Notes: generated by a model not told the origin, from the sequence alone. 32,000 bases of DNA from Sedimentisphaera cyanobacteriorum (GCF_001997385.1 NZ_CP019633.1:2850001-2882000), one strand, 5' to 3'; shown: positions 19,568 to 23,251, counted from the stretch's first letter. Translations and numbers: made by a program.

Positions 19568-20928
19568 AATACGAATACAACAATATGCTGATGCGAGAGA
19601 GCGTAACAATTGGCGCTGAGACAGAAGCCTACGCCGCCGATCCGAACGGTATGGGGCGATACAGCTCTGTGGGTTCTGAGGCGGTGGAGTATGACGGGAA
19701 CGGAAATCTCTCCCGCTGCGGGGATGACTACTACATCTACGACCCGCAGGACAGGCTTCGGGCGTATTATCGGCTTGCGGGCGATCCGAATGAGGCGAGC
19801 GTATCGCTGTACGGCTATGATTTATTCGGCCGACGGGTGAGCAGGGCATCTGCCTCAGGCGTTGGCGATAATGAGGGCGAGCTGCAGCAGAGCTTTGCAT
19901 ACTCCGGGCATCGCGTGATAGCGGAATACGACGGCTCGGGCGGGGTGCAGAAACGCTTTGTTTACGGAGCGGGGATTGATGAGGTGGTTTGTATGATTGA
20001 TGTGGTGAGGCCGGCGGGCGCAGGCTGGACAGAAAGCATGAGCGATTTGGCGGCGGCGTGGCTTTGCGCCGAGGGCGATTTATGCTATGCTGCAAATGCA
20101 GATTACGTTGACAATACAGAGCCTAATATGATCAACATCGAAGACCTTGCTTACTATCTGAGCGAGTATTACATTGCAGAGCGGGATGCCGCCTTTGCGG
20201 AAGAATACTGCGGCTATTTTGCCGATGAGCTGGGCAGTGTGGTGATGTTGTATTCGGCCGAGCCGAACGGGATTGCTGAGATATACAGCTATGATGCATA
20301 CGGCAGCGTGGAGATAAGCGATCCGAACGGCCAGCCGCTGGATGAAAGTGCAGCCGGCAATCCGTATATGTTCGCCGGCCGGCGGTATGACAGCGAATCC
20401 GGCCTGTACTACTGGCGCGCAAGATACTACAACCCCGCCTTGGGCGTATTCCACTCCCGCGACCCCCTCGGCTATATCGACAGCATGAACCTCTACGCCT
20501 ACTGCGCCAATAATCCCGTAAATTACGTTGATCCCTGGGGGGAACTGCCTTCAATTACGAGAACTAAGCATTACAGAAGAAATAAATATAACACTTGGCA
20601 ACCTAAAACCCCAAAAGCGGCGGAAAAGGCAGGATGGCGGAAAGTCTCTTGGCCTAAAGATATTTACCATAAACAAGGCCCTAAAGCTAGTAGACGAAAC
20701 CAAAAATGGATTTCTCCTAGTGGAAAATGTGAGACCGTCTATGATGATAATGGAAATTTAGTTACAGATTCTGTTGACCAGGGAACATACAACTTTTATC
20801 CAGCTTCTGATGCTATAAACCATTATAAATATGATATTGAGCCATATATATTATGGGGTAATTCGCCTGATGATCCTACTGATAAATATGACAGGATTTT
20901 GGGCACATACAAAGGCGAATTGCAGTGA
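19555..20928 (+). CDS. Orphan RHS module 1: 325-aa core fragment plus a unique tip (family shared with module 2)
   Basis: The core is about 98 percent identical in protein to the primary gene, judged by eye. The tip follows DPWGE. The ATG is created exactly at the repeat junction. Confidence 0.8.
   Translation: MDAIEYEYNNMLMRESVTIGAETEAYAADPNGMGRYSSVGSEAVEYDGNGNLSRCGDDYYIYDPQDRLRAYYRLAGDPNEASVSLYGYDLFGRRVSRASASGVGDNEGELQQSFAYSGHRVIAEYDGSGGVQKRFVYGAGIDEVVCMIDVVRPAGAGWTESMSDLAAAWLCAEGDLCYAANADYVDNTEPNMINIEDLAYYLSEYYIAERDAAFAEEYCGYFADELGSVVMLYSAEPNGIAEIYSYDAYGSVEISDPNGQPLDESAAGNPYMFAGRRYDSESGLYYWRARYYNPALGVFHSRDPLGYIDSMNLYAYCANNPVNYVDPWGELPSITRTKHYRRNKYNTWQPKTPKAAEKAGWRKVSWPKDIYHKQGPKASRRNQKWISPSGKCETVYDDNGNLVTDSVDQGTYNFYPASDAINHYKYDIEPYILWGNSPDDPTDKYDRILGTYKGELQ
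19558..20534 (+). repeat. RHS core copy 1 (977 bp, offset +2069 from the master)
   Basis: Near-identical to 17489..18465. Confidence 0.9.
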
Positions 20929-20965
20929 TACTTTAAAACTTTAATTAATCTTCAAAGAGTTAGCG

Positions 20966-21550
20966 ATGTCTAAGAAAAAAGTAATAAGTTTGATTTTTGG
21001 GATTGGCTTGGCTGGTTTGGCAATGCTATTTATAGCAAAGCCGTACTTAATTTTCTATGTGTTTTCAACGCATATTTCTCGGCAATACGTGTGCCCTGAG
21101 CTAGAAAAAGTAGATATTCCCCCAGATTTGGATTCAATGAGCTCTGATTTCGACTATAAGGTTAGGGATAGTTTTATAAAACCATTTTTATCTAAACACG
21201 AAAGTCCCAAGGAATTGAGTAGGCCTAATGTTACTTACAAGCTGATAGTTCAAATTTGGATGCCGGCAGAGAGCGGTTCTGAAATAAAGATAACCGAAGC
21301 TAAATTGAAATTTGGAGGGGACAATTCTGAAAATAAATCTCTCTCACTTAATCCCGAAGAAAATTATAAAGTTTCTGATTTGAATCTAATTGCCTTTGAT
21401 AGCAAAGAAAATTTTGAATTAAACAGTAAGAAACCATTTGTTCTTGCACTTGAAATTGAGCATACAGATGTGAACGGGAATAAGATTAAAAGATCATTAG
21501 AATATAATTTTATTTACAAGTGGATAAAAGAGCATTTTCCTCTGGTATAA
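20966..21550 (+). CDS. Candidate immunity protein for module 1 (N-terminal TM anchor)
   Basis: It lies downstream of the tip and is AT-rich. It shares the TM anchor, the Y(V/I)CPE(L/F)E motif and the C-terminal pattern with 22673..23251. Confidence 0.65.
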   Translation: MSKKKVISLIFGIGLAGLAMLFIAKPYLIFYVFSTHISRQYVCPELEKVDIPPDLDSMSSDFDYKVRDSFIKPFLSKHESPKELSRPNVTYKLIVQIWMPAESGSEIKITEAKLKFGGDNSENKSLSLNPEENYKVSDLNLIAFDSKENFELNSKKPFVLALEIEHTDVNGNKIKRSLEYNFIYKWIKEHFPLV

Positions 21551-21609
21551 TAAGGTTGGAAAGAGCTAAATAATGTCTACGAGGGTTAAAAGGATCAGGT
21601 TTCTTTTTC

Positions 21610-22184
21610 GTTTACGGAGCGGGGATTGATGAGGTGGTTTGTATGATTGATGTGGCAAGGCCGGCGGGTGCAGGCTGGACAGAAAGCATGAGCGATTTGG
21701 CGGAGGCGTGGCTTTGCGCCGAGGGCGATTTATGCTATGCTGCAAATGCAGATTACGTTGACAATACAGAGCCTAATATGATCAACATCGAAGACCTTGC
21801 TTACTATATGAGCGAGTATTACATTGCAGAGCGGGATGCCGCCTTTGCGGAAGAATACTGCGGCTATTTTGCCGATGAGCTGGGCAGCGTGGTGATGTTG
21901 TATTCCGCCGAGCCGAACGGGATTGCTGAGAGATACAGCTATGACGCATACGGCAGCGTGGAGATAAGCGATCCGAACGGCCAGCCGCTGGATGAAAGTG
22001 CAGCCGGCAATCCGTATATGTTCGCCGGCCGTCGGTATGACAGCGAATCCGGCCTGTACTACTGCCGCGCCAGATACTACAACCCCGCCCTGGGCGTATT
22101 CCACTCCCGCGACCCCCTCGGCTATATCGACTCAATGAACCTCTACGCCTACTGCACCAATAACCCTGTGAACTTCGTTGATCC
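21610..22184 (+). repeat. RHS core copy 2 (575 bp, offset +3719)
   Basis: Aligns to master positions 17891..18465. Confidence 0.9.
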
Positions 22185-22653
22185 ATGGGGTTTGTGTTAT
22201 GAAATAATTCACCCAAGAAAACAGCAATTAAATTTATCGTCTGATTATGTAAAACTAATAAAAATGCACCGAAAGAGGGATCTTTACAATACATGGCAGC
22301 CTAAAAATCCTCAGATTGCTATTGATAGAGGTTGGAAAGAATTAATTGGATTGCAGGCTATGTATCACCAAATGGGGCAAGGCAATGGAAACAATCGCAA
22401 ATTTATTTCGCCCAGCGGCAAATGCGAAGTCGTGTATGATAGTGATGGAAATATTCTAACCAATCCCGCAAATCGCGGAACCTACAATTACGGCACAAAT
22501 TGGTTTACACATTTTATCTTGGATATGGTGCCTTATTACATTGAAGGTAATTCGCCAACTGATCCTACTACGCCGTCAGAAAGAATATATGGTACTTATG
22601 GTGCATCGTCAATATCTCAACCTTTTAAGACTGCTAGTGGATTATGGTTTTAG
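21634..22653 (+). CDS. Orphan RHS module 2: core fragment plus a tip homologous to the module 1 tip
   Basis: GTG at 21634, or ATG at 21643. The tip follows DPWGL and shares YNTWQPK, ISPSGKCE.VYD..GN and GNSP.DPT with module 1. Confidence 0.8.
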   Translation: MVCMIDVARPAGAGWTESMSDLAEAWLCAEGDLCYAANADYVDNTEPNMINIEDLAYYMSEYYIAERDAAFAEEYCGYFADELGSVVMLYSAEPNGIAERYSYDAYGSVEISDPNGQPLDESAAGNPYMFAGRRYDSESGLYYCRARYYNPALGVFHSRDPLGYIDSMNLYAYCTNNPVNFVDPWGLCYEIIHPRKQQLNLSSDYVKLIKMHRKRDLYNTWQPKNPQIAIDRGWKELIGLQAMYHQMGQGNGNNRKFISPSGKCEVVYDSDGNILTNPANRGTYNYGTNWFTHFILDMVPYYIEGNSPTDPTTPSERIYGTYGASSISQPFKTASGLWF

Positions 22654-22672
22654 CAAATAAAGGCAATAGATC

Positions 22673-23251
22673 ATGAAAAGATATGACAAATATAAGATTC
22701 GTCGCCGGTTATTTTTCTCTATCTTAATTGTAGGCATTGCTGTCTTATTTCTATGGAGGATTGGGACGTTTCATACGCAAAGAGCTGAAAGTTATATATG
22801 CCCAGAATTTGAAGGCTTAGAATTTCCTTTAAGCTCCGAAGTAATTTTGAGCCATCCTGAATGTTCTTTAGATGGAATTTTTGTCCATTCACGGTTAGTG
22901 CCCACGTCGCACATCAAGAATAAATCTGTAGGTCCTTACCAAATTTATGTTTCATTTTATAGCATAGACAAACGGAAGCAAGTACTTCTAAAAGATGTGA
23001 TAATACTTGAAAACAATAATGAAACATCGATTTTTATGAAAGCGGAAAATGAAGGCTGGGAAAAGACTTTTAACGCTATCTTTTATCATTTATATACAAG
23101 TAAACAGGCTTATTCTCTGGATTTTAAGAGTAAGAACAAAGTATTGTTAAAAGTACGTGTGTGTATTTTGGATGGAGATATAATTACAGAGGATACAATA
23201 GAATTTGAATTTCAGCCTAAGTTGATTTCAGAATGGGTACCAGTAGTATAA
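22673..23251 (+). CDS. Candidate immunity protein for module 2, diverged homolog of 20966..21550
   Basis: Same size and architecture: TM anchor, YICPEFEGLEFP, and a C-terminal ...EFEFQPKLISEWVPVV. Confidence 0.65.
   Translation: MKRYDKYKIRRRLFFSILIVGIAVLFLWRIGTFHTQRAESYICPEFEGLEFPLSSEVILSHPECSLDGIFVHSRLVPTSHIKNKSVGPYQIYVSFYSIDKRKQVLLKDVIILENNNETSIFMKAENEGWEKTFNAIFYHLYTSKQAYSLDFKSKNKVLLKVRVCILDGDIITEDTIEFEFQPKLISEWVPVV

Follow-up and report, generated by a model that had tools for sequence, protein, structure and literature searches.

The orphan rhs array and its first two cassettes

We analysed a 32,000-nucleotide stretch of DNA from Sedimentisphaera cyanobacteriorum (GCF_001997385.1, NZ_CP019633.1:2850001–2882000; referred to below as the window), in which two putative toxin/immunity cassettes of the Rhs type lie next to each other. 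The locus consists of one expressed-type rhs gene and seven orphan cassettes, all on the plus strand, and the pair studied here corresponds to orphans 1 and 2. The full-length rhs/YD-repeat gene, identified from the list of open reading frames (ORFs) and by repeat search, occupies positions 13883–18877 and encodes a protein of 1664 aa with its own tip after DPRGL; the ORF in the immunity position of this tip (18878–19567) has three predicted transmembrane segments. Orphan 1 starts with a core remnant (19555–20544) that corresponds to the 3′ end of the rhs core and terminates in NNPVNYVDPWGE, as established by repeat search and translation. It is followed by tip 1, a candidate toxin domain of 127 aa (20545–20928), and by immunity candidate 1 (20966–21550), which encodes 194 aa. 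The core remnant of orphan 2 (21634–22191), delimited by repeat families D1–D4 and translation, is shorter and terminates in NNPVNFVDPWG. Tip 2 (22192–22653) comprises 153 aa, including an N-terminal linker of ~25 aa and a C-terminal tail of ~15 aa, and is followed by immunity candidate 2 (22673–23251; 192 aa). The gap between the toxin stop and the immunity gene is 37 nt in cassette 1 and 19 nt in cassette 2.

The PxxxxDPxG[LWE] signature of the Rhs core end precedes both tips (NNPVNYVDPWGE before tip 1 and NNPVNFVDPWGL before tip 2), and Pfam RHS_repeat matches the ORF that carries tip 1. The ORFs carrying tips 1 and 2 measure only 457 and 339 aa, respectively, versus 1664 aa for the main Rhs protein, and both the shell and the N-terminus are absent from them. 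The repeat search found the final 234 nt of the rhs core in eight copies, at 18253, 20322, 21972, 23494, 24738, 26853, 28601, and 29681, and longer core blocks of 300 nt are 97–100% identical to one another (100% for 19558–19857 and 17489–17788). The G+C content of the tips and their partners is 36–41%, as opposed to ~54% for the rhs core. An Rhs orphan toxin/immunity array is in itself an ordinary, known type of locus; the tip family is not ordinary.

Comparison of the two tips by BLASTP, with tip 1 taken after DPWGE and tip 2 after DPWGL, gave 46% identity over 114 residues (E 2e-36). This bears out the proposal of the initial annotation that the two tips share one domain, which is polar and ~115 aa long. 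The six conserved blocks on which that proposal was based (YNTWQPK.P..A...GW, YH..G, K[WF]ISPSGKCE.VYD..GN..T, GTYN, H...D..PY...GNSP.DPT, and I.GTY) are present in both tips. In an alignment of 134 family members, numbered from the leucine at position 20545, residues N83 and H93 are invariant. Conservation reaches at least 96% for H42, N52, K54, E63, D97, P100, G105, N106, and D110, and 83–92% for H9, R12, N13, D75, and R117. H93 and D97 form the family motif H-[FY]-x-x-D, in which H93 is followed by an aromatic residue; there is no HExxH. Each of the two tip domains contains a single cysteine, located in GKCE, and no cysteine column is conserved across the family. Read from this alignment, the conservation pattern of the ~115-residue domain is enzyme-like.

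The two ORFs downstream of the tips had been described as homologous to each other, at coordinates that proved correct. Candidate 1 features a basic N-terminus (MSKKK), a transmembrane or signal-anchor helix, the sequence YVCPELE, and then a domain of ~150 aa, whereas candidate 2 has a basic N-terminus, a transmembrane helix, and YICPEFE; the N-terminal helix and the Y(V/I)CPE(L/F)E motif are therefore present in both. Based on the basic N-terminus, the hydrophobic helix, and the positive-inside rule, the C-terminal domain of ~150 aa is predicted to lie outside the cytoplasm. By BLASTP only the first 44 residues, which cover the helix and the motif, could be aligned (34% identity, E 9e-7), and global identity is 23–25%. 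With the transmembrane helix removed, the alignment score was still 6.7 standard deviations above shuffled sequences, and the region after the motif scored 3.7 standard deviations above them. We also built a profile from ORF 1 and its closest outside relative (L001:606–1190; 37% identical), which is the gene downstream of the metagenomic toxin P0001. This profile matched ORF 2 from positions 8–194 to residues 12–192 with 31 bits (E 8e-6 when scaled to a database of one million sequences). An iterative search without the first 30 residues united ORF 1, ORF 2, the P0001 partner, and the partner of another relative, P0009. Given the end-to-end profile match and the shuffle controls, the homology extends over the full length of the two proteins, and their shared C-terminus (EYNFIYKWIKEHFPLV in candidate 1 and EFEFQPKLISEWVPVV in candidate 2) is real. 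The view that toxins and partners have diverged to a similar degree did not hold, since identity amounts to 46% between the tips but to 23–25% between the immunity proteins. Searches of PDB sequences with the immunity profile, the tip, and the family profile returned only Rhs cores, transmembrane helix matches, or noise.

A widespread tip family with exported or membrane partners

Neither the tips nor the immunity proteins matched any entry in scans of Pfam, NCBIfam, and PHROGs, in line with the earlier statement that the tip could not be assigned to a named family. A word-indexed protein search returned only five relatives of tip 1 and, for immunity ORF 1, only the query itself. The rarity this suggested was misleading because an exhaustive profile search over 1.84 billion cluster representatives (50% identity clusters) found a large family. 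It recovered 2,103 clusters at E ≤ 1e-3, 1,164 at E ≤ 1e-10, and 54 at E ≤ 1e-30, and the best matches span the tip domain itself. Among species-level genomes, members occur in Lentisphaerae/Victivallaceae, Kiritimatiellaeota, Puniceicoccaceae, Phycisphaerales, Treponema, Desulfovibrionaceae, Campylobacteraceae, Rickettsiales, many Clostridia and Bacillota, and candidate phyla. In the sources that we looked up, they are named only “hypothetical protein” or “RHS repeat-associated protein.”

The domain is attached to diverse carriers, including RHS/YD-shell, LXG, DUF7211, and Peptidase_M23 proteins, giant eCIS_core proteins that also bear AHH and TNT toxin domains, and a lipase-like alpha/beta hydrolase. 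On Moraxella bovis plasmids, a copy of the tip adjoins a VENN pre-toxin gene in an orphan region of the contact-dependent growth inhibition (CDI) type. On a megaplasmid of Ralstonia solanacearum SL3022, a frameshifted, VgrG-linked copy (L046:5935–6917) is preceded by VgrG and Rhs genes and followed by the intact gene of a lipoprotein partner, which reads as an orphan immunity gene kept after toxin decay. A metagenomic protein of 370 aa (P0008) carries two tandem toxin domains behind a DUF7211 N-terminus with an HGVKGMKWG motif. Several PHROGs of unknown function are also matched by this N-terminus, suggesting that the carrier is phage-associated. No phage homologues were found. Judged from sequence comparison, the tips are members of one large C-terminal domain family of polymorphic toxins that is distributed over many phyla and is not named in any of the libraries searched. 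Pfam, NCBIfam, and PHROGs do not include it, although it occurs in both Gram-negative and Gram-positive phyla and with several delivery systems.

Structure prediction of the tips had been suggested together with the Pfam search. Our first AlphaFold2 model, based on seven sequences, had a predicted local distance difference test (pLDDT) value of 66 and gave no usable fold matches. The model based on 134 sequences reached a pLDDT of 96.4 and a predicted TM-score of 0.88. In this model, the domain is predicted to comprise short N-terminal helices, a small beta unit (residues 53–56 and 62–66), a long helix spanning residues 90–104, and a C-terminal helix. The long helix carries H93 and D97, separated by one helical turn; E63, H42, and D110 are further candidate active-site residues.

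To survey the partners of this family, the first ORF downstream of the toxin was taken in 39 loci. An N-terminal hydrophobic segment is present in 35 of these ORFs. The partner of P0009 is an exception that gains a transmembrane helix when read from a GTG start right after the toxin stop, bringing the count to 36, and the remaining three exceptions look like housekeeping or spurious ORFs. Approximately 17 of the 39 partners are proteins of 160–200 aa with a single anchor, signal peptide, or lipobox and a domain of ~150 aa, whereas approximately 14 are proteins of 95–150 aa with three to five transmembrane segments. The Ralstonia partner has a canonical VSGC lipobox, and the Moraxella partner is an 84-aa protein with multiple transmembrane segments. 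Among bacterial proteins at large, membrane and exported proteins account for only about a third, and exported immunity proteins accompany envelope-acting effectors in the pairs TelC/TipC, colicin M/Cmi, and Tle/Tli. Because nearly all partners are exported or membrane proteins, and by analogy with these pairs, we infer that the toxin family probably acts outside the cytoplasm, on the cell envelope. Envelope-targeting toxins of this sort form a class with few characterised examples.

In the 13 loci with single-anchor partners, toxin and immunity similarities are correlated (Spearman rho 0.34), with a nominal p of 0.002 for pairs that are non-independent. The closest toxin pairs in this sample also have immunity proteins that are by far the most similar.

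We also considered that the tip might be a nuclease or RNase of the colicin D/BECR type acting in the cytoplasm, in which case the anchor of the immunity protein would be incidental. Conserved His, Lys, Arg, and Glu residues abound in this small domain, and the colicin D tRNase chains 1v74, 1tfk, and 1tfo occupy ranks 2–4 in the Foldseek comparison of the 134-sequence model and ranks 1–3 in that of the shallow model. However, these matches are not significant (E 0.2–0.7, probability 0.12–0.25, TM-score 0.23–0.39, root-mean-square deviation 9–14 Å), and ~90% of the loci have lipoprotein, signal-anchored, or multi-pass partners, which would not be expected for a cytoplasmic target. Immunity proteins of the ImmD type are soluble. 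With no significant fold match and a conflict with the exported partners, we rejected the colicin D/BECR identity as improbable.

Probable relation to AMOP and the proposed mode of action

Foldseek comparison of the tip model with 350,542 PDB chains returned nothing at E ≤ 0.001, and comparison with viral structures returned nothing. The top match among the PDB chains was the crystal structure of the TSR-AMOP fragment of human Isthmin-1 (ISM1; PDB 9c6t), with a probability of 0.89 and 25% identity over 113 columns. The same structure was among only two matches when the hidden Markov model of the family was searched against the PDB. For profile comparison, the ISM1 AMOP sequence was checked against 9c6t_A and used as a single sequence. 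In hhalign, a family profile of 34 sequences matched it with a probability of 70% over 41 columns, and the profile of 134 sequences with a probability of 84% (P 7e-6) over 107 columns, which take in the greater part of either domain. The aligned identities are H9, N13, W31, G80, T81, N83, H93, D97, P100, and R117. The hhalign score was 36.3 for the real sequence versus 11.1 ± 2.0 (maximum 18.2) for 72 shuffled ISM1 sequences. In HMMER, ISM1 scored 17.3 bits and ranked first against 20,000 shuffles, of which the best reached 10.1 bits. A 40-aa fragment of ISM1 gave no match in the protein collection searched.

The features shared with AMOP comprise an H..(R)N motif near the N-terminus, a tryptophan, GT.N, H...D..P[WY] on a long helix, and a C-terminal arginine; both domains also work outside the cytoplasm, in the case of the toxin by inference. 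In contrast, the tips are ~25 residues shorter, bacterial, and found in toxin positions, and their near-invariant N52, K54, E63, N106, and D110 could not be matched in ISM1. AMOP has been described as a distinct fold with only a weak resemblance to streptavidin, as extracellular, and as having no known catalytic role, in a 2025 study that mentions neither bacterial relatives nor a metal site (PMC12000326). No paper linking AMOP to polymorphic toxins or to prokaryotes in this way was found. We regard homology between the tip domain and AMOP as reasonably probable. Because the Pfam test for AMOP failed and the AMOP cysteines are absent, as detailed below, we call the tips probable distant relatives of AMOP instead of members of that family.

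Overall, we propose that the locus contains two orphan Rhs toxin/immunity cassettes, the tips of which belong to an envelope-acting family that has AMOP as its best solved relative; we assign this explanation a probability of roughly 0.7. Several points weigh against it. The geometry of the Foldseek match to 9c6t is weak (E 0.057, query-normalised TM-score 0.43, root-mean-square deviation 7.5 Å), and the match of the family hidden Markov model to the same structure has an E-value of just 0.83. Neither tip matches Pfam AMOP (PF03782) even at E ≤ 10, let alone at the gathering score, and only two of the 134 members match it, with a best E-value of 0.049. The tips do not possess the eight disulfide cysteines of AMOP. 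AMOP itself is without known enzymatic activity, and the metal site and catalytic mechanism of the tip are putative. The site of action is deduced only from the predicted topology of neighbouring genes. Furthermore, of the six other ORFs that occupy immunity positions in the array, four (18878–19567, 24091–24744, 25453–25998, and 25995–26645) are predicted to contain multiple transmembrane segments, and the membrane-partner signal may partly reflect this Rhs type, not only the tip. The array as a whole seems biased to envelope- or membrane-acting toxins, and Rhs proteins of this kind may in general be loaded mainly with envelope toxins. Finally, we found no toxicity or neutralisation data for any family member.

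As for the chemistry of the tip, our tentative best candidate would be a metal-dependent hydrolase that acts on an envelope component. A rival reading would place the tip among the zincin-like metallopeptidases, as a divergent member of the Tox-MPTase4 family (PF15640), which likewise consists of small C-terminal domains of Rhs-type polymorphic toxins. The Moraxella bovis pMBO-1 member (L047:1532–2095) matches Pfam Tox-MPTase4 with E 2.2e-4 over profile positions 10–105 of 132, and the H93xxxD97 of the family, on a helix, has the spacing of HExxH. However, this match remains below the gathering score (21.6 versus 25 bits) and is the sole such match among ~170 members scanned. The zinc-binding motif of Tox-MPTase4 is HExxH (Zhang et al, 2012, PMC3482391, Table 2), which the family does not have, with an aromatic residue after H93. 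As a genuine member we used an E. coli O22:H8 Rhs tip annotated as a zincin-like metallopeptidase toxin (L048), located via bioRxiv 10.1101/2024.03.05.583533. Against the family profile, its score resembled that of a shuffled sequence (hhalign probability 0.1%, score 10), and its partner differs from those of the tips in being a 69-aa protein with no hydrophobic stretch seen by eye. There was also no zincin among the top 50 Foldseek hits. We rejected the Tox-MPTase4 identity as highly improbable on the grounds of the sub-threshold match, the absent HExxH, and the genuine member being unlike the family profile. Weak Pfam matches to Glyco_hydro127C and OCRE, in up to six members with E ≥ 0.002, were treated as short-motif noise.

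The lack of a known catalytic role for the extracellular AMOP (PMC12000326) could also mean that the tip domain serves in adhesion or binding and is non-toxic, the role usually supposed for AMOP, and that the downstream membrane proteins are unrelated to it. The context of the domain makes this very doubtful. It is positioned right after the Rhs DPxG, at the extreme C-terminus, where it is interchangeable with six unrelated tips in the array, and it also occurs on LXG, eCIS, and CDI-type carriers. Across phyla, a small gene in tight linkage lies behind the domain and diverges together with it.

Under the explanation that we favour, the orphans have no Rhs shell and would not be delivered as they stand. 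Homologous recombination via the 97–100% identical core repeats could move a tip together with its immunity gene into the expressed rhs gene, and the retained immunity genes would guard against neighbours deploying those tips. Once delivered, the tip would act at the outer face of the inner membrane, in the periplasm, or on the cell wall, and not in the cytoplasm. The immunity protein would be anchored with its N-terminus inside and its C-terminus outside, so that its extracytoplasmic domain could bind and block the cognate tip, and rapid divergence of this domain would set specificity.

It is also reasonably probable that the AMOP domain of metazoan proteins (MUC4, SUSD2, and the Isthmins) has a common ancestor with a polymorphic-toxin domain that is widespread in bacteria and active in the cell envelope. 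If so, the shared core (H..N, GT.N, H...D..P[WY], and R) would mark an ancestral ligand-binding or catalytic site, and AMOP would join the animal extracellular domains derived from bacterial conflict systems. Such a relationship would provide a first evolutionary and functional handle on this animal domain, together with easily expressed, cysteine-free bacterial homologues for biochemistry.

Origin of the cassettes and comparison with known systems

The initial annotation had read the two cassettes as a toxin/immunity family pair undergoing diversification within a single locus. The first part of this reading stands, as the locus contains two pairs of one family, the toxins and immunity proteins of which co-vary. 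Diversification in situ was not supported because each tip has a closer relative elsewhere. For tip 1, this is the metagenomic P0001 (69% identity), the downstream gene of which is in turn the nearest relative of immunity ORF 1. With tip 2, P0039 shares 52% identity and the tip of the full-length Rhs protein P0009 shares 50%, compared with 46% for tip 1. Based on these closer outside relatives, the low G+C content, and the unequal core remnants, we favour successive capture from a lineage-wide pool. The data fit cassettes that were captured one after the other and displaced into the orphan array, and not local duplication. Capture and displacement have been described for enterobacterial rhs and cdi orphans (PMC3150448, PMC3967940).

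Tandem duplication of a cassette inside the locus, with subsequent divergence of both copies, would account for their adjacency and for the homology of the immunity proteins. It would also agree with the sub-clade signatures YNTWQPK and SPSGKCE, which occur only in tip 1, tip 2, and P0001 within the 134-sequence alignment; the P0009 tip, which is not part of that alignment, bears these signatures as well. Besides the closer relatives that each tip has elsewhere, immunity ORF 1 is 37% identical to the P0001 partner and only 23–25% identical to immunity ORF 2. The core remnants, ~990 nt in orphan 1 versus ~560 nt in orphan 2, are as expected from separate displacement events. We consider duplication unlikely and retain successive capture as the preferred reading.

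Downstream of the two cassettes, positions 23276–30125 hold five more orphan rhs-CT/immunity cassettes with tips unrelated to tips 1 and 2; their orphan ORFs span 23276–24091, 24745–25446, 26611–27537, 28194–29192, and 29649–30125. The tips of orphans 5 and 6 (26611–27537 and 28194–29192) are 90% identical over the first 104 residues after DPYG, and their C-terminal ends have wholly diverged. The ORFs behind these two orphans (27537–28154 and 29253–29603) show no mutual BLASTP match at E ≤ 1e-3. Orphans 5 and 6 look like a chimeric tip pair that may have arisen via recombination inside the tip. After the last, short orphan (29649–30125), the translations of 30177–30443 and 30497–31321 were read by eye as orfA and orfB of an IS3-type transposase; a stray ORF of 109 aa behind them (31355–31684) may represent a displaced tip fragment. 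Minus-strand ORFs of 118–246 aa recur in every G+C-rich copy of the core repeat (17376–18026, 19355–20095, 20080–20454, 21730–22104, and others). We take these antisense ORFs to be by-products of repeat composition, not genes. A scan for promoters and terminators showed no enrichment.

The full-length relative P0009 is a protein of 1823 aa with RHS_repeat and YD-shell matches. It has an apparent N-terminal Sec signal peptide, read by eye, and extends ~190 residues further at the N-terminus than the Rhs ORF of the window. Upstream of the rhs ATG at 13883, ORFs in other frames are present at 13501–13785, with a hydrophobic N-terminus, and at 13713–13886. It may be that rhs carries a frameshift at its 5′ end or that its start was miscalled.

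The toxin and immunity proteins of this family resemble the pairs TelC/TipC, colicin M/Cmi, and Tle/Tli in combining a soluble toxin with a lipoprotein or an outward-facing, membrane-anchored immunity protein, although no sequence or fold similarity between the tips and these toxins was found. At the level of the locus, the array is consistent with the rhs-CT/rhsI orphan arrays of Dickeya, Salmonella, and E. coli (PMC3150448, PMC3967940). As in those arrays, the 3′ end of the core is repeated up to PxxxxDPxG, the tips differ, a small immunity gene lies directly downstream of each, and the near-identical repeats permit recombination into the expressed gene. The array described here differs in its seven orphans, in its host, which judging by the taxa of the relatives is probably a PVC-group bacterium, and in its surroundings, in that no VgrG, PAAR, EagR, or other type VI secretion system genes were found near the locus. 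It differs further in that most of its immunity genes encode membrane proteins and that the related full-length protein P0009 has an apparent signal peptide.

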